Source: a virus. Taken from it: a DNA stretch of 16,539 nt. Positions 5,548-16,539 of the stretch are shown here, one piece after another; within the stretch, counting starts at the first letter, position 1, and the number at the start of each line of letters is the position of its first letter. The notes beneath the pieces were generated by a model. The model was given only the letters and a program-made list of their open reading frames with translations, made no database searches and was not told the origin of the DNA. Made by a program: the position numbers and the translations under genes. Where the stretch lies: the UHGV virus genome UHGV-0073462. The stretch is one strand, 5' to 3'.

Positions 5548-5602
5548 TTATGAATTCTGGTTAAAATCCATTCGATTATAAAAATGTATATCTCATGCTG
5601 TT

Positions 5603-5628
5603 GCCCGAACCCACTCGGGCTTTTTTTT
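5603..5628 (+). terminator. plus-strand intrinsic terminator (hairpin plus T8)
   Basis: GCCCGA-ACCCAC-TCGGGC hairpin followed by TTTTTTTT on the plus strand. Lies back-to-back with the minus-strand hairpin at 5641-5658. Confidence 0.5.
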
Positions 5629-5633
5629 GCCCA

Positions 5634-5658
5634 CAAGAAAGCCCCTCCGGAGAGGGGC
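5634..5658 (-). terminator. intrinsic terminator at the end of repeat module B
   Basis: Minus strand: GC-rich palindromic hairpin GCCCCTCTCCGGAGGGGC followed by TTTCTTG. Confidence 0.5.
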
Positions 5659-5870
5659 TAAAGCCGCGTATCTGTATCATCATGCACATGGTGCCGGGTG
5701 CCTCCCGGTGAGTTCAGCCAGGTGCCACTAAACCCGCGTCATTCTCGTTTTGATAATCAGAGATTATACCGTCACCAGTCGCCCCTCCGCTCAGGGGGAT
5801 TCACCATGCGAAATTTTTTTAACAAATGCCCAGTCTGACAGGCAACTGTCAACTTACTGAATTGTGAGCA
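5634..5870. repeat. late-leader repeat module, copy B (direct repeat of 6116-6352)
   Basis: Blocks shared with copy A at a constant offset of about 482 bp: palindromic hairpin GCCCCTCCGGAGAGGGGC, CATGGTGCCGGGTGCCTCCCGGTGAGTTCAG, GCCCCTCCGC(T/A)CAGGGGGATTCACCATGC, and TTGAC(A/T)...CTGAATTGTGAG. Minus-strand reading runs from a TTGACA -35-like hexamer to the terminator hairpin about 200 nt downstream. Confidence 0.6.
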
Positions 5871-5932: not shown

Positions 5933-6115
5933 TGGAAGGATAGCGGTCATGTGATGCCGGTTTCCCGGTAACTCAGCACCGGTATCTGAGTCAACGTTTT
6001 CTCTACTGGGTCATTTCCGATACACCTGCCTGCTGACAGGCTTTCATCACATCTGAAAATATAGCACCCTGACTGATACTGTAGTACCCAAGGTTCCAGA
6101 AACTGTGATGTATCC

Positions 6116-6352
6116 GGCACAGAAAAGCCCCTCCGGAGAGGGGCTGGAGAGTGGCGCTATGTGCCATTGCATGGTGCCGGGTGCCTCCCGGTGAGTTCAG
6201 TATCAGCACCTGAACCCGCACAGAAAGGATAAGGGTCGGTGACAAAACACCAGTTGCTGATTGCCCCTCCGCACAGGGGGATTCACCATGCCAGTTTCTT
6301 TTAACAAACTCCCCGCAAACCAGACAACAGTCAACCGCCTGAATTGTGAGGT
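6116..6352. repeat. late-leader repeat module, copy A (direct repeat of 5634-5870)
   Basis: Same conserved blocks as copy B in the same order. The TATAAT present in copy B is replaced by CTTATC here. Flanking sequence on the Q side (about 6353-6400) is still weakly similar to the inter-module spacer, so the duplicated unit is roughly 480 bp. Confidence 0.6.
6120..6144 (-). terminator. intrinsic terminator at the end of repeat module A
   Basis: Minus strand: GCCCCTCTCCGGAGGGGC hairpin followed by TTTTCTG. Confidence 0.5.
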
Positions 6353-12930: not shown

Positions 12931-13151
12931 GCCACACCTCCCAGACGCTTAAACATTTTTCCGGAGCAAAAGGCTATAAGCGGCATACTGATGCGGTAAT
13001 TACGGCCCAGCGGTTCACAAATCACCTTCTGACATTCACGGTCAACCAGGCTGACACGTAGAACATGCCCTGCAGGCGTGGTGTACCACTGACCAGGACG
13101 AGGACAACGGAAAGTCTGATTGGTAAACCGTTTGAAAATATTCCGGATCAT
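12927..13151 (-). CDS. hypothetical small protein (74 aa)
   Basis: ATG at 13151 overlaps the stop of the Rha gene (ATGA); basic, Cys-containing. No domain recognised. Confidence 0.45.
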   Translation of the reverse strand: MIRNIFKRFTNQTFRCPRPGQWYTTPAGHVLRVSLVDRECQKVICEPLGRNYRISMPLIAFCSGKMFKRLGGVA

Positions 13152-14308
13152 TTGCGCCCCCTTACCTCTGAAGGGTTCAGCGACAAATTTATGAGACTGG
13201 CCAGTAGCGCCGCGTCGTTGATGCGGTCATACAGACTTACAGCCAGCGGGGATTCGGCTTTTGCCAACATGGGATAAAGCTGCTGCAGCCAGACCTTGTG
13301 GATTACCGACAGGTGGGAGTAAAGCACGCTGGCGTTATCTGCGGCATCGCTCAGCGTGGATGGCTTTGAAAGCAGTTTTTCCATCTGGTTAAAGGCATTG
13401 ATGTATGCCTCTTTGAACCGGGCAGCACGTTTACCCGTGAAACCCATAGCAAGAAACGCAAAACCGTCTCGTGTGATTTGATAGCAAGGGAGCTTGCGTG
13501 TACCACCGTTCGGTTGATTTACCGAAATCGATGTCTCCGCAAAATTGCGGGCACAAAACTCTGGGGAACAATCCAGAGTGCGGATCTTTTTCAGCACATC
13601 GTCGTGACGCTTGGAGAAGGAGTTGGCAACAGCCAAAGAAGTGGTAACGGCCTGGCCGTTGTCAATGGTGATTTCAGGTTGAGTGAGGGCTGGGTTCGTA
13701 GCCATGATGGCAGCCTCCGTTGACAGTGAAAAACTTCCACCACCGGAAACGCCAATTTCACTGGTGGTGAACTGGACGGGGTTGGCGTAACCGGCGTCAA
13801 CGGAGACCGGCGCACCTTTCGGTGCCCCCGCCCAGCCCACCATAATCTGGATGTGAGCAAATGCGGACGATAAAAAAGACGCTGGCGCGTCATACATCGC
13901 CGTTGACAATTTCAGGACGCCAATCCCGGCACCCGCTTTATAAGGTGCCTGAACAGTGTAACGTCCCGGAATGGCAGAATCAATATGCTGGTGGTCCTTC
14001 ACACTCAACAAAATCACGCCTGAATTTCCACAAAGGACTAAAGCACTCATGCGGGTAGTCTTTGCGAAGATAGATAACGCGCTGTGTTTCTGGCTCCCAA
14101 CGAATAACATGGACATAAAGCCCTCTTCCGTCACGAAACCAGCGGTTAAGTTCCTGCACAACTCGCCCCCCACAGTCAGGTAAAGTTCTCTGTGGTTACT
14201 TACAGCCAGGTGATTTGGTAATCTGCATTCATGCCGTAACAACAGGTGTTCAGCGACGCTGACCACCAGCTGTTGCGACAAACGGTTATTTGCCGTTAAA
14301 CTATTCAT
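13148..14308 (-). CDS. Rha-domain phage regulatory protein with a roughly 200-aa N-terminal extension of unknown nature
   Basis: Residues about 205-315 (MATNPALTQPEITIDNGQAVTTSLAVANSFSKRHDDVLKKIRTL...YQITRDGFAFLAMGFTGKRAARFKEAYINAFNQME) match the Rha (Phage_pRha) domain. The ORF stays open about 600 bp upstream to an ATG at 14308 that overlaps the CII-like stop (ATGA). No other long ORF covers 13750-14308. Confidence 0.6.
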   Translation of the reverse strand: MNSLTANNRLSQQLVVSVAEHLLLRHECRLPNHLAVSNHRELYLTVGGELCRNLTAGFVTEEGFMSMLFVGSQKHSALSIFAKTTRMSALVLCGNSGVILLSVKDHQHIDSAIPGRYTVQAPYKAGAGIGVLKLSTAMYDAPASFLSSAFAHIQIMVGWAGAPKGAPVSVDAGYANPVQFTTSEIGVSGGGSFSLSTEAAIMATNPALTQPEITIDNGQAVTTSLAVANSFSKRHDDVLKKIRTLDCSPEFCARNFAETSISVNQPNGGTRKLPCYQITRDGFAFLAMGFTGKRAARFKEAYINAFNQMEKLLSKPSTLSDAADNASVLYSHLSVIHKVWLQQLYPMLAKAESPLAVSLYDRINDAALLASLINLSLNPSEVRGRK

Positions 14309-14862
14309 GCGTTAGTTTCTCCACAACCAGAAGCAATCGACGCCACGACGCCCGGAGCTGCACACTCGCGGGCGTTACTATTTTCTGGAGCGCAAAAGAT
14401 TTTGTAGACCAGTGCTGCATGCTCCTGGAGCTTCGAAATTGAAAGATACAGTTCGTCGTTAATTGCTGTCTTCTCATGCGGTTCCACTACACCGTCTTCG
14501 ATTGCTGAACGAATCTGTCTGGAATAACTGCCGATCTGTTCAATGACTTCCAGCAGGCGCTGGTTTATATCGGCGTTCTCTACTGCCTCAATTTCAGGAA
14601 GCGATACGAACACCCCACCAGCAGACTGTGCGACAGCATCCGCAATGTAGTGAGTGCCAGCCGCACGCTGTAAAACCATTGCCCATCCCAGCGGGAAAAT
14701 CTGATCGCCATCTGCACGAAGGCGGTTGAATAAAGCGTTCTCTGTTACATCCAGCCAGTCAGCAGCTTCAGCGTACCCCCCCGGCAACGCTGCGATAGTT
14801 TTTCTGACAGCTTTCACGTACCACTCAGGCTGTTTTTCTACTTTCCAGTGATGCTTACCCAC
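14305..14862 (-). CDS. putative CII-like early regulatory protein (185 aa), family assignment tentative
   Basis: GTG start at 14862 with strong SD AGGAGGT 5 nt upstream, overlapping the end of cro. Position directly after cro is that of cII-type regulators; sequence has a helical DNA-binding-like N-terminus. Function is inferred from position. Confidence 0.5.
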   Translation of the reverse strand: MGKHHWKVEKQPEWYVKAVRKTIAALPGGYAEAADWLDVTENALFNRLRADGDQIFPLGWAMVLQRAAGTHYIADAVAQSAGGVFVSLPEIEAVENADINQRLLEVIEQIGSYSRQIRSAIEDGVVEPHEKTAINDELYLSISKLQEHAALVYKIFCAPENSNARECAAPGVVASIASGCGETNA

Positions 14863-15115
14863 GGTTCACCTCCTGTTCCTGTGGTTTAAACCCATTCTGG
14901 TTTTGGCTAGATTGAAAACGTGCCGGATAAAGAATCTGCATTTCGCTGATTTCACCCTTAAAAAAATTGGCCAGACGTTCTGCAAGATCGATAGATGGAA
15001 TTTGTTCCAGTCTTTCAATACGACTCAGCGTCGCTGGATTGACCTGAACGCCCGCAGCAACATGCTGCAAAGTAAATCCGTGCGCCTTACGCACATTCCG
15101 TAATGGTGATTGCAT
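14855..15115 (-). CDS. cro: Cro-like HTH (XRE family) repressor
   Basis: 86 aa, ATG at 15115 with SD GGAGG 5 nt upstream. HTH segment FTLQHVAAGVQVNPATLSRIER. Divergent from cI across an operator-containing spacer. Confidence 0.75.
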   Translation of the reverse strand: MQSPLRNVRKAHGFTLQHVAAGVQVNPATLSRIERLEQIPSIDLAERLANFFKGEISEMQILYPARFQSSQNQNGFKPQEQEVNRG

Positions 15116-15129
15116 ATAACCTCCACATA

Positions 15130-15192
15130 TTGCGTGATGAGCATATTATTTCACGCAAATATTTTGCGCAAGTTGATTTGCTTAACGCGCAA
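15130..15192. promoter_or_regulatory. cI/cro divergent promoter-operator region (OR-like) with two inverted-repeat operators
   Basis: TTGCGTGA-N13-TCACGCAA (15130-15158) and TTGCGC-N17-GCGCAA (15164-15192). Candidate minus-strand pR is -35 TTGCGC / 17 bp / -10 TAATAT. Candidate plus-strand pRM is TTGCTT / 17 bp / TGTAAT ending just before the cI ATG. Confidence 0.5.
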
Positions 15193-15212
15193 TAAAGAAA
15201 TGTAATAAACGC

Positions 15213-15905
15213 ATGAACATAGGAAATCGAGTCAGACAACTTCGCCAGGCGAAGAACATGAAAATCGCCGATCTCGCTGAAGCAATAGGAGTGGATGCGG
15301 CGAATATCTCGCGCCTCGAAACAGGTAAGCAGAAACAATTCACTGAACAAGCCCTGAGTAATATTGCCAGGAGCTTAGGTGTTGATATTGCTGATCTCTT
15401 TACCTCAGACCTCAAAAGTAATACTGTATGTAAAAACAGTATTAGTGAGGATGTTGCGCAGGTGAAGGATGTATTCCGTATTGAAATGCTGGATGTCAGT
15501 GCCAGTGCGGGAAATGGCCTTATCCAGGGCGGTGATGTCATTGATGTGATTCATGCCATTGAATACAGAACTGATAATGCTGTATCGATGTTTGGTGGAC
15601 GACCAGCAAATCACATTAAAGTTATCAACGTTCGTGGGGACAGTATGTGTCCAACCATTGAGCCAGGAGATCTCATCTTCGTTGATATCAGTATCAATCA
15701 GTTTGATGGGGATGGTATCTATGTGTTTGGTTTTGATGATAAAATTTATGTCAAACGACTGCAAATGATACCTGACAAACTACTGGTAATTTCTGATAAC
15801 CAGATTTACCGTGAATGGGGAATTACCAGCGAAAATGAACACCGGTTTATGGTCTTTGGAAAGGTCTTAATCAGCCAGTCACAAACCCTTAAGCGACACA
15901 ATTAA
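15213..15905 (+). CDS. cI: CI-type prophage repressor (N-terminal HTH plus C-terminal S24 LexA-like autopeptidase domain)
   Basis: 230 aa. HTH (MKIADLAEAIGVDAANISRLETGKQ), S24 peptidase motifs (GDSMCPTIEPGDLIFVD; downstream KR in IYVKRLQ). Little or no leader before the ATG, as for lambda cI from pRM. Confidence 0.9.
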   Translation: MNIGNRVRQLRQAKNMKIADLAEAIGVDAANISRLETGKQKQFTEQALSNIARSLGVDIADLFTSDLKSNTVCKNSISEDVAQVKDVFRIEMLDVSASAGNGLIQGGDVIDVIHAIEYRTDNAVSMFGGRPANHIKVINVRGDSMCPTIEPGDLIFVDISINQFDGDGIYVFGFDDKIYVKRLQMIPDKLLVISDNQIYREWGITSENEHRFMVFGKVLISQSQTLKRHN

Positions 15906-15925
15906 CCCTTACCTCCTCATCAATT

Positions 15926-15950
15926 AGCCACCCGAAGGTGGCTTTTCATT
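15926..15950 (+). terminator. intrinsic terminator immediately downstream of cI
   Basis: AGCCACC-CGAA-GGTGGCT hairpin followed by TTTTCATT, starting about 20 bp after the cI stop. Confidence 0.6.
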
Positions 15951-16434
15951 ACTCATCAAATTGCATATCTCGCAACAAAAATACTTGCATAATGCGCAAC
16001 TTCATTTTATCTTTCTTTCCAGACCAACAAACAAGGTACTAACAAAATTTGGTTGTAACACGGCGTATGGCACATGCGTCGTTAGCGGTCTGGGGACGTT
16101 AAAGGAGACAATCCACTCCTTGCTCGGGCAAACAAACCAGGTAGCCGGAATGTGCAAGTCAATGATGATGCTGATAAGACGCCTAACCAGCGTGGCGATT
16201 CGGTTTGACGCCTGGGAAGAGACCAGGGTGCAACGATGAGGGCATTTATGGAACCGCGACAAAGTGTGGTGCCGTAACTGGCTAAGTGCTCTCAGTGTTG
16301 TGGTGAAGGCGCAGGCTGATGCGCGAAAGACATTGCAGCTATTGCGGAAAAGAGCTGTTCGGCGGGGCAATTAAACGCCCGTGAGAGTCTGAAATAACCG
16401 CAAGCCGGAGATCAGCACCGGTCACCACAACAGC

Positions 16435-16481
16435 CACTGCTTTGGCGGTACCAGTTTGTACACTTGCTTCCGGCTGGTACC
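16435..16481 (+). terminator. terminator-like long hairpin with T-tract at the end of the ORF-poor region right of cI
   Basis: GCGGTACCAG...CTGGTACCGC 10-bp stem with about 19-nt loop, followed by TCTTTTTA. The T-tract together with preceding stem bases (CGCTCTTTTTACAA) also loosely resembles a boxA element. Confidence 0.4.
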
Positions 16482-16539
16482 GCTCTTTTTACAAAACAGA
16501 GAAGAGCATCACCGGACGACGGGCTCATAACCCAATCCA

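Follow-up and report, generated by a model that had tools for sequence, protein, structure and literature searches.

Lambdoid phages that lack an N gene are common, and how they pass their early terminators is a standing question. The same question is raised by UHGV virus genome UHGV-0073462, a stretch of 16,539 nucleotides (nt) that we analyzed as a whole and refer to as the window; its right-hand end (14855-16539) carries the immunity region and the leader of the early-left (pL) operon. The source of the window is an Escherichia coli lambdoid prophage of the SfV/mEp460/cdtI type. Region 14855-16539 was 99.9% identical to prophage locus L001 of E. coli CP55_Sichuan and showed 96.6-98.5% identity to PhiR63_1, mEp460, phiSTEC1575-Stx2k, 1720a-02 and Stx2a_1447/WGPS2, as well as to prophages in the strains UTI89, S88, APEC O1 and NU14. 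An earlier reading made from the letters alone (the sequence-only reading) had seen no obvious N/nut system here and had proposed that early antitermination is N-independent, possibly through a put-like RNA, or that the N gene lies beyond the window. We found neither N, nut nor put in this operon; instead, the leader of about 600 nt downstream of pL was revealed to be a composite of conserved structured RNAs.

Absence of N, nut and put from the early-left operon

Locus L001, in which a coordinate equals the window coordinate minus 5854, was used to extend the sequence to the right. The first coding sequence after cI in L001 was yfdP, the start of which is equivalent to window position 16628, 89 nt beyond the window end; it was followed by yfdQ (DUF2303), yfdR (HD-type 5'-deoxynucleotidase), small open reading frames (ORFs), an Ea22-like gene, a DUF4222 gene, xis and int. 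The same layout was present in mEp460, Stx2a_WGPS2, cdtI, lambda_2H10 and E. coli O104:H4, and cdtI and lambda_2H10 combine this yfdP operon order with different immunity regions. None of the pL-operon products matched an antiterminator family in Pfam or PHROGs, and none of the 28 ORFs with 35 or more codons on the plus strand from pL to int carried an Arg-rich motif at its N-terminus. YfdP, the product of the first gene of the pL operon, is acidic, has no Pfam family and belongs to a PHROG of unassigned function; it likewise showed no N-terminal Arg-rich motif. The proposal of an N gene beyond the window was therefore not borne out, as the rightward extension gave yfdP first and nothing N-like up to int, and no N-like ORF with boxA/boxB sequences stood just right of the window in the 99.9%-identical L001.

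Within the window, the sequence-only reading had seen no convincing ORF in 15906-16539 and no N-like ORF on the plus strand, and our results agreed on both points. Across this leader, no frame was kept open through 20 diverged homologues, the two longest ORFs matched no PHROG family, and the ORFs annotated in mEp460 and cdtI were not conserved; a protein-coding leader was rejected on these grounds. The only K/R-rich plus-strand candidate was an ORF of 36 codons with a GTG start (16264-16374), which spans the apex of the P6 stem-loop and the 3' module described below and carries its K/R-rich stretch at the C-terminal end (ARKTLQLLRKRAVRRGN). It was rejected as a miniature N because of its GTG start, its location within conserved RNA helices and the replacement of the module in relatives that have the same operon.

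The sole boxA-like octamer of the leader, CGCTCTTT at 16481, was located in the 3' shoulder of terminator D1. The corresponding position in relatives reads CGCCC, CGACC or CGTCC, and the octamer was rejected as a boxA since it is not conserved. No conserved boxA/boxB was found in the pL leader, and the initial 2.2 kb of the operon on the pR side contained no boxA-like sequence. On that side, the cro-like and CII-like ORFs overlap by 8 bp (14855-14862), as the sequence-only reading had pointed out and the ORF list shows, and therefore leave no intergenic space for nutR/tR1. These results showed that the early-left operon has neither an N gene nor a nut site, which is typical of this phage group.

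For comparison with put RNAs, 11 putL and putR sequences (HK022 putL and putR, the putL-like site of HK639, and sites of phiEt88, CobraSix, UPF_BP1, PDP110P2 and PdC23) were aligned, and a covariance model, R1, was made with the stem I and stem II pairs of the cryo-electron microscopy paper (PMC9378689). R1 gave 66-94 bits on the put sites of the loci searched. On the window and L001, with filters off, its best scores were at most 9.2 bits (E of about 0.6-1) and fell in coding DNA. The put invariants GAACGGC, GUCGG and GGCG.GG were absent from the leader. One hairpin of the leader, termed P1, has ACGGCG...CAUGCGUCG in common with put stem I, in that single hairpin only, and an apparent CAAU match to put falls in a variable hairpin loop that is different in phages P1 and phiV10. 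Membership of the leader in the put family was rejected on the evidence of model R1 and the missing invariants. Thus, of the N-independent mechanism envisaged earlier, the absence of N and nut held, whereas a put-like RNA in the sense of HK022 put was not detected by the covariance model in the window or its extension.

Structured RNA modules of the leader

BLAST searches against phage genomes revealed that the spacer of about 720 nt between cI and yfdP is a mosaic of widely shared segments. The sequence-only reading had described roughly 600 bp without a convincing ORF; this description was correct as to ORFs but missed the structured RNA modules that fill the region, one of which is the published sRNA-17. 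The thermodynamic z-score of the whole leader was only -1.6, and the case for structure therefore rests on covariation.

The first module, which we refer to as the 5' domain, occupies 16059-16235 on the plus strand (164 model positions). Two hairpins belong to its fold, P1 (CGGCGUAUG-GCA-CAUGCGUCG) and P5, whose loop reads GAAGAGA. In addition, AGCGGUCUG and CAGGUAGCCG pair in a long-range helix, the single strand GGUAGCCGGAAUGUGCAAG is invariant, and an H-type pseudoknot is built around the (U)UCACCA loop. In an alignment of 31 sequences of the 5' domain (A6), the 32 pairs were 98.3% canonical and 11 of them showed compensatory changes; none of 500 shuffled controls reached the observed values, and controls in which the structure was slid gave 30-42%. 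A second alignment (A4), which also covers the P6 stem-loop and has 20 sequences with 55-93% identity to the window, yielded 46 pairs by RNAalifold, 18 of them compensatory; with the pseudoknot added, it yielded 48 pairs, 99.2% canonical and 17 compensatory, again with none of 500 shuffles reaching these values and with slid controls at 30-44%. These counts lean towards the structure, since it was derived from the same sequences on which it was scored; nevertheless, both kinds of control, slid and shuffled, speak for a real structure, as does the number of independent types of pair.

A covariance model of the 5' domain, R2, found a single site in the window (148.6 bits, E = 4.5e-44) and scored 143.7 bits in phage P1; no match was found in SfV, LLS, HK639, HK022 or the CPS-53 prophage of E. 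coli K-12. Rfam, searched at the gathering threshold on the whole window and at E <= 10 on the immunity region and leader, returned nothing in the leader. The compensatory changes and the specific model match suggest that the 5' domain represents a new structured-RNA family, and the motif may stand anonymously in a large catalogue of candidate viral structured RNAs (PMC10690425). We also considered an RfaH ops-like reading of GGTAGC in the invariant strand, which was rejected because the flanks do not fit the ops consensus.

The 5' domain is followed by a stem-loop, P6 (16236-16295, plus strand; GAUGAGGGCAUU...AGUGCUCUCAG), with a variable apical insert, which corresponds to helix 8 of A4 and showed 6 compensatory pairs. 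P6 forms the 3' part of the upstream RNA, and copies of this module recur in phage P1, SfV, LLS and mEp390.

A cloverleaf-like module then extends, together with terminator D1, over 16296-16489 on the plus strand, as delimited by its terminal helices and the published sRNA-17 primers. The 3' module proper (16296-16443) is bounded by the closing stem GUUGUGGUGA/UCACCACAAC and contains a 5' hairpin, GCGC-AGGCUGAU-GCGC, and a 3' hairpin adjoining the closing strand, CCGG-AGAUCAGCA-CCGG (4-bp stems with loops of 8 nt and 9 nt); its center is variable, with lengths of about 30-200 nt. The terminal helices comprise 18 pairs, 6 of which were compensatory, and none of 500 shuffles matched them. Although the acceptor-like closing stem and the two hairpins covary, neither ARAGORN nor the Rfam tRNA model (E <= 10) matched the module, and the term tRNA-like is an architectural description only. 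In the whole leader, ARAGORN found no tRNA or tmRNA at default settings and made only implausible intron-containing calls at relaxed settings. A genuine tRNA-Arg occupies the slot of the 3' module in phiV10 and in an epsilon15-like prophage of E. coli, where it starts at the same junction between GUU and GUGG.

Terminator D1 (16444-16490, plus strand) consists of GGCGGTACCAG...CTGGTACCGC followed by TCTTTTT, that is, an 11-bp G+C-rich stem with a 19-nt loop and a U-tract. The simple terminator scan missed it because of the 19-nt loop, and it was evident in the folds, in accordance with the terminator-like hairpin that the sequence-only reading had placed at the window end. D1 was conserved with compensatory changes in lambdoid and epsilon15-like contexts, and, leaving aside the P1 context, most representatives had a terminator after the element. 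With its hairpin, its U-tract and a published 3' end by rapid amplification of cDNA ends (RACE) at this position, D1 is an intrinsic terminator. The last part of the window (16491-16539) holds the 5' half of a further plus-strand hairpin, D2, with the lower stem ACAAAACAGAGAAGA/UCUUCUCUGUUUUGU, seen in the fold of L001 10575-10775 (z = -5.8). At full length, D2 has about 90 nt; its lower stem comprises about 20 bp and its apex is conserved. The 3' half falls outside the window, where it reaches the equivalent of about 16580 and leaves about 50 nt to the start codon of yfdP. D2 was conserved in SfV and showed compensatory changes in LLS, and it may be an RNase III site or a second terminator.

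Sun et al. (2020, Front Microbiol 11:574833, PMC7719688) characterized sRNA-17, a 193-nt small RNA (sRNA) from an mEp460-like prophage of E. coli K1 RS218, by 5'- and 3'-RACE and Northern blot, and found no Rfam homologue for it. We placed sRNA-17 by mapping the primers of their Table S2 onto the window rather than from the RS218 sequence. The RACE, Northern and full-length oligonucleotides all fell within 16296-16489, with 0-2 mismatches each. Their orientation puts sRNA-17 on the plus strand, since the Northern probe and the primers for 5'-RACE were complementary to RNA of that strand and those for 3'-RACE were sense. It is thus the 3' module plus D1; the RNA starts where the closing stem has its base and stops within the U-tract of D1. 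Their fragment described as an ArcA promoter corresponds to 16047-16296, which coincides with the structured 5' RNA, and the direct GTTA repeats that they read as ArcA sites are part of conserved helices and strands of this RNA. Their deletion removed 16322-16439 and left D1 in place. By RNA sequencing, yfdP had 0.49 reads in the wild type versus 47 in the deletion strain, and yfdR rose from 0 to 8.5; these increases are probably due to the inserted cassette, acting in cis or by polarity, and not to regulation in trans. The RS218 data show that the plus strand of the leader is transcribed, that a discrete RNA with the module boundaries exists and that transcription mostly ends at D1 there.

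The 5' domain was found at 2,467 places in 1,833 of the 5,426 complete E. coli genomes; 554 of these places were on plasmids, and the plasmid matches sampled showed P1-like identity. Carriers include O104:H4 and ST95 extraintestinal pathogenic E. coli strains and P1-like plasmids. The domain is unannotated in RefSeq, as no annotation lay under the match in any of the E. coli matches listed. Homologues of window segment 16041-16290 were present in at least 120 IMG/VR contigs and in 22 contigs of GTDB species representatives, including the genera Kosakonia, Citrobacter, Klebsiella, Kluyvera, Phytobacter, Enterobacter and Superficieibacter as well as Erwinia dacicola. The GTDB contigs were almost all from Enterobacteriaceae, together with the one Erwinia species and one short contig labeled Bacillota. 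The latter, a 1.75-kb contig (L150) of a metagenome-assembled genome, has a 5' domain of the usual enterobacterial kind and is most likely mis-binned or a contaminant, not evidence of an occurrence outside Enterobacterales.

A survey of 31 representatives, clustered at 93% identity, revealed three genomic contexts. In the lambdoid context, the modules directly follow a cI-like gene and pL and precede one or two strong terminator-like hairpins and the pL operon, which usually opens with yfdP/yfdQ; mEp390 has different cargo. In the epsilon15/phiV10-like context, they lie on the opposite strand, with the portal gene on one side and the terminase gene on the other, and are succeeded by a tRNA (or a tRNA-like module), by terminators and by a small ORF that varies; in phiV10 itself, the homologue is directly upstream of tRNA-Arg. 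In the P1-like context, they stand behind trnI, upstream of ban or other genes. The homologue in phage P1 (71010-71194) begins right behind the CCA end of tRNA-Ile, and here only the 5' domain is kept, with no terminator. The modules abut without spacers and their order varies; in one representative (L136), the end of the 3' module directly precedes the 5' domain. A structured-RNA unit is thus kept upstream of unrelated cargo genes in three phage types.

Further copies of single modules were also observed. In phage P1 (L004, plus strand), three P6-like modules (1993-2084, 2188-2317 and 2491-2578) follow trnT in the ban operon; they end in GUUGUG(A/G)UGAA and carry the T-arm-like inserts GGGUUCGAAUCCC and GGGGUCAUAUCCC. 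They lie beneath the annotated minus-strand ORFs plp and upl, and the reality of both ORFs is perhaps doubtful. The leaders of SfV (L158 1650-2690) and LLS (L159 2040-2670) contain P6-like and 3'-type modules, D1 and D2, without the 5' domain. A conserved AUGCUGUGUGUAGUC box is common to these two leaders and the window; the LLS leader has an extra terminator-like hairpin near its beginning (GCUGGCUG...CAGCCAGCUUUUU), and the SfV leader has an inserted orf33 and another annotated terminator. In the K-12 prophage CPS-53 (L160 5248-5604), yfdP-yfdQ-yfdR is kept and the whole immunity region and leader are lost; homology is limited to the last 30 nt or so upstream of yfdP, and the yfdO-yfdP spacer contains no leader module. 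K-12 data sets therefore cannot inform on the leader.

A proposed RNA array with attenuation and its alternatives

The reading we favor, to which we give about an even chance, is that pL makes a stable structured RNA array, that this transcription mostly terminates and that the operon is N-independent and attenuated. The first 470 nt or so from pL would form an array of structured non-coding modules that abut like the genes of a tRNA cluster. The 5' domain and P6 would together make up the first unit, which is pseudoknotted and about 240 nt long, and the second unit would be sRNA-17, the cloverleaf-like RNA of about 190 nt that ends at D1. Upon derepression, RNA polymerase would transcribe the array, the two RNAs would be separated by an endonuclease, possibly RNase P-like, that cuts where the acceptor-like stem has its base, and most transcription would stop at D1. 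To reach yfdP-yfdQ-yfdR and the genes beyond, the polymerase would have to read through both D1 and D2, which only a fraction would do. The leader would then serve both as a gene cassette for stable early RNAs and as an attenuator or insulator of the accessory operon, and early-left expression would be N-independent because it relies on leakage through the terminators and not on dedicated processive antitermination.

Several observations are in agreement with this array model. Besides the absence of N, nut and put and the conserved structures, the modules adjoin one another directly, the RACE ends published for sRNA-17 fall on module boundaries, and the unit is retained ahead of unrelated cargo in three phage types. 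The published quantitative reverse transcription-PCR (qRT-PCR) amplicon, 16047-16442, covers both RNAs and supports their co-transcription. In the wild-type lysogen, yfdP had only the 0.49 reads given above and sRNA-17 was visible on the Northern blot; therefore, leader transcription appears to end largely at D1. According to the title of one report, overexpression of yfdQ-yfdR-yfdS-yfdT inhibits the initiation of chromosomal replication (PMC4776307), which would give a reason for tight attenuation. Other points weigh against the model. The RS218 cultures had not been induced, so that pL should have been repressed, and the transcripts seen in them need not stem from it. The 3' module was not recognized as a tRNA by either program used, and two strong hairpins between promoter and gene, with an upstream RNA that holds 19 invariant nucleotides, would also fit regulated antitermination. 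Finally, the array model leaves the role of the RNAs themselves unexplained.

The alternative that survives best, although we hold it to be unlikely, is that the 5' domain is a cis-acting, factor-independent processive antiterminator, a functional analogue of put and not its homologue, such that the nascent RNA binds the transcribing polymerase and carries it through D1, D2 and Rho-dependent sites. The domain has the position of nutL and putL, some 40 nt downstream of the predicted pL start, which is in line with the placement expected of a put site. It is found in N-less lambdoid phages with differing immunity regions and, in mEp390, differing cargo as well, and strong terminators followed by co-oriented genes lie downstream in most lambdoid and epsilon15-like representatives. 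Long invariant single strands across phages that share no proteins would point to a host partner such as RNA polymerase. Phage P1 keeps the 5' domain alone, just upstream of ban, in an operon with long untranslated stretches. No second copy of the 5' domain was found on the pR side by nhmmer or the covariance model, and a single copy has a precedent in HK639, which has only a putL-like site. The same question was left open for the related N-less phage LLS, for which a 2025 paper offers only the guess 'put-like' (PMC12315714). In contrast, SfV and LLS have the same yfdP operon and the D1/D2 design without the 5' domain, and a tight linkage to tRNA and tRNA-like modules would be unexpected for an antiterminator. 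The element has no sequence or structure relation to put. Moreover, the RS218 RNA ends at D1 and yfdP is essentially silent despite a transcript that spans the 5' domain and the 3' module, and these literature data argue indirectly against constitutive read-through. With similarly limited confidence, we tentatively entertain a broader idea, in which the 5' domain (with its pseudoknot and the invariant GGUAGCCGGAAUGUGCAAG) belongs to a new class of RNA and has a conserved host machine, perhaps the transcribing RNA polymerase, as its binding partner. In the polymerase version, it would be a factor-independent anti-pausing, antitermination or anti-Rho element unrelated to put, and would explain how N-less lambdoid phages express the early-left operon.

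It is less probable that sRNA-17 is an independent gene with its own ArcA-repressed promoter in 16047-16296, acting in trans on host mRNAs, and that the upstream 'RNA' is simply promoter DNA. Phosphorylated ArcA bound the fragment mapping to this interval in an electrophoretic mobility shift assay, and expression was ArcA-dependent with a 5'-RACE end near 16296 (PMC7719688); however, the protein concentrations in that assay were 20-80 uM (PMC7719688). The supposed promoter shows plus-strand covariation across 31 sequences from many genera and three phage types, which is unexpected for promoter DNA, and no reasonable -35/-10 pair precedes 16296. In phiV10, a real tRNA begins at this very junction, the qRT-PCR amplicon of the authors themselves starts at 16047, and the strongest 'targets', yfdP and yfdR, lie immediately downstream of the inserted cat cassette.

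A conditional attenuator is more doubtful still. Here the leader would be a riboswitch or protein-sensing element in which the 5' domain senses a ligand, a tRNA or a host protein and decides whether D1 folds. A complex pseudoknotted fold with invariant unpaired nucleotides is reminiscent of riboswitch aptamers, the downstream terminator is conserved, and the invariant AGCGGU resembles GGCGGU of the D1 5' strand and could pair with the D1 3' strand. Yet interchangeable modules of 80 to more than 300 nt lie between the domain and D1, which makes mutually exclusive helices difficult, and phage P1 has the 5' domain without any terminator. The least probable alternative, to which we give very little credence, is an unrecognized protein antiterminator (YfdP or a pR-operon product) that acts on a leader hairpin as an N analogue without similarity: N proteins are small and very diverse, YfdP is the first pL product and has no assigned function, and the P5 loop begins with GAAGA, as does lambda nutL boxB, but YfdP is acidic and lacks the Arg-rich motif, the 7-nt P5 loop sits within a larger fold with no boxA upstream, and retention of the RNA in P1-like, epsilon15-like and lambdoid phages of differing gene context makes a dedicated phage partner unlikely.

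Neighboring features and comparison with known systems

The control elements ahead of the leader were as expected for a lambdoid immunity region. On the minus strand, the CII-like regulator YmfL (14305-14862; named after RefSeq at a near-identical locus) matched Phage_CP76 (PF06892, E = 5.5e-15), which Pfam describes as 'phage regulatory protein CII', and the cro-like helix-turn-helix (HTH) repressor, the first gene on the pR side (14855-15115), matched HTH_3 (E = 5.9e-10). A divergent pR/pRM control region (15116-15212), delimited by pattern search and sequence, separates them from the plus-strand gene of a cI-type repressor with an HTH and an S24 autopeptidase (15213-15905; Peptidase_S24, E = 5.9e-19, and HTH families). 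The terminator and the TTGC...GCAA repeats that the sequence-only reading had reported downstream of cI were recovered. The terminator scan placed an intrinsic terminator of the cI transcript at 15926-15943 on the plus strand (7-bp stem with 5 G-C pairs, then a T-run), and the pattern search found two exact TTGC-N7-GCAA operators (15961-15975 and 15985-15999) in the plus-strand oL/pL region 15961-16013. The pattern recurs in the cro/cI spacer as an exact copy (15178-15192) and a copy with one mismatch (15130-15144), and the search found a single further exact copy elsewhere in the 16.5-kb window. The candidate pL, read by eye, has TTGCAT (15985-15990) and TATCTT (16008-16013) with a 17-nt spacer on the plus strand, and it overlaps the second operator repeat. 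Judged from the sequence, the repeats and the candidate promoter represent the expected oL/pL arrangement, and the pL start would be at about 16020.

Rfam matches were also observed elsewhere in the window. On the minus strand, a C4 antisense RNA (13760-13847, 81 bits) and IsrK (13872-13948, 62 bits) matched inside an ORF of 386 codons (13148-14308) that encodes one Rha-family/antirepressor protein according to RefSeq and PHROGs, and a short terminator-like hairpin (13878-13891) lies within the IsrK match. The N-terminal 190 codons or so of this ORF may in fact be an untranslated regulatory RNA, as in an antirepressor switch of the P1 immI/Gifsy IsrK type. If so, the hairpin would be the first terminator-like site noticed on the pR side.

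The N-less layout was already known from SfV, mEp460, cdtI and LLS, and sRNA-17 had been published. What is new is the exclusion of put membership, the definition of a widespread unannotated pseudoknotted RNA family (A4, A6 and R2), the recognition of the leader as a modular RNA array in common with P1-like and epsilon15-like phages, and the reinterpretation of sRNA-17 and its 'promoter', the latter being a conserved RNA domain. A very common prophage type thus runs its early-left operon differently from lambda, and the question of early-left expression is narrowed, as neither N/nut nor put is present in this type. Any function of the 5' domain would matter widely, be it in the control of transcription, in tRNA biology or in counter-defence.

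Among known systems, the architecture of the 3' module was similar to that of STnc100/PasD (RF02076). The closing stems are alike (GCAUGGUG/CACCAUGC against GUUGUGGUG/CACCACAAC), hairpins stand just inside each strand, an intrinsic terminator follows at the end, and the SfV version of the module carries the STnc100 hairpin CCGGGAGGCACCCGG. In contrast, STnc100 is a short leader RNA downstream of Q in lambdoid prophages, while the 3' module belongs to a pL context. As it gave no Rfam score at the gathering threshold or at E <= 10, its assignment to STnc100 was rejected, and only the architecture is alike. A relation between STnc100 and the PasD sRNAs is drawn in a 2026 preprint. STnc100 itself is present in the window as tandem minus-strand copies at 5629-5838 (164 bits) and 6115-6320 (141 bits), both ending in the terminator GCCCCUCUCCGGAGGGGC, and an AsxR anti-sRNA match lies on the plus strand at 5573-5625, exactly at the gathering score; the pair and AsxR are downstream of a region annotated as antiterminator Q in the near-identical locus.

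HK022 put causes terminator read-through in cis through the beta' zinc-binding domain of the polymerase. The leader resembles the put sites of HK022 and HK639 in being a non-coding RNA just downstream of pL in lambdoid phages without N, and it resembles HK639 further in its closely packed cro/cII genes and in having a left-operon site only. A put site, however, measures about 70 nt and has two stems, whereas the 5' domain has 164 positions and a pseudoknot. T4 species 1 and 2 RNAs, which are co-transcribed with tRNAs, GOLLD and ROOL are structured phage RNAs of unassigned function that occur beside tRNAs. Similarly, the leader RNAs adjoin tRNA or tRNA-like units and their variable regions carry tRNA-like inserts; the 5' domain is much smaller than GOLLD and ROOL and has no sequence or Rfam relation to them. 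Lambda N/nut occupies the same genomic slot as the leader, the first element transcribed from pL and upstream of a terminator, but the present phage lacks an N-like protein and a conserved boxA/boxB and leaves nutR no room. Lastly, sRNA-17 was published as a free-standing, ArcA-regulated and trans-acting sRNA, whereas in the present comparison it is the second module of an N-less pL leader.

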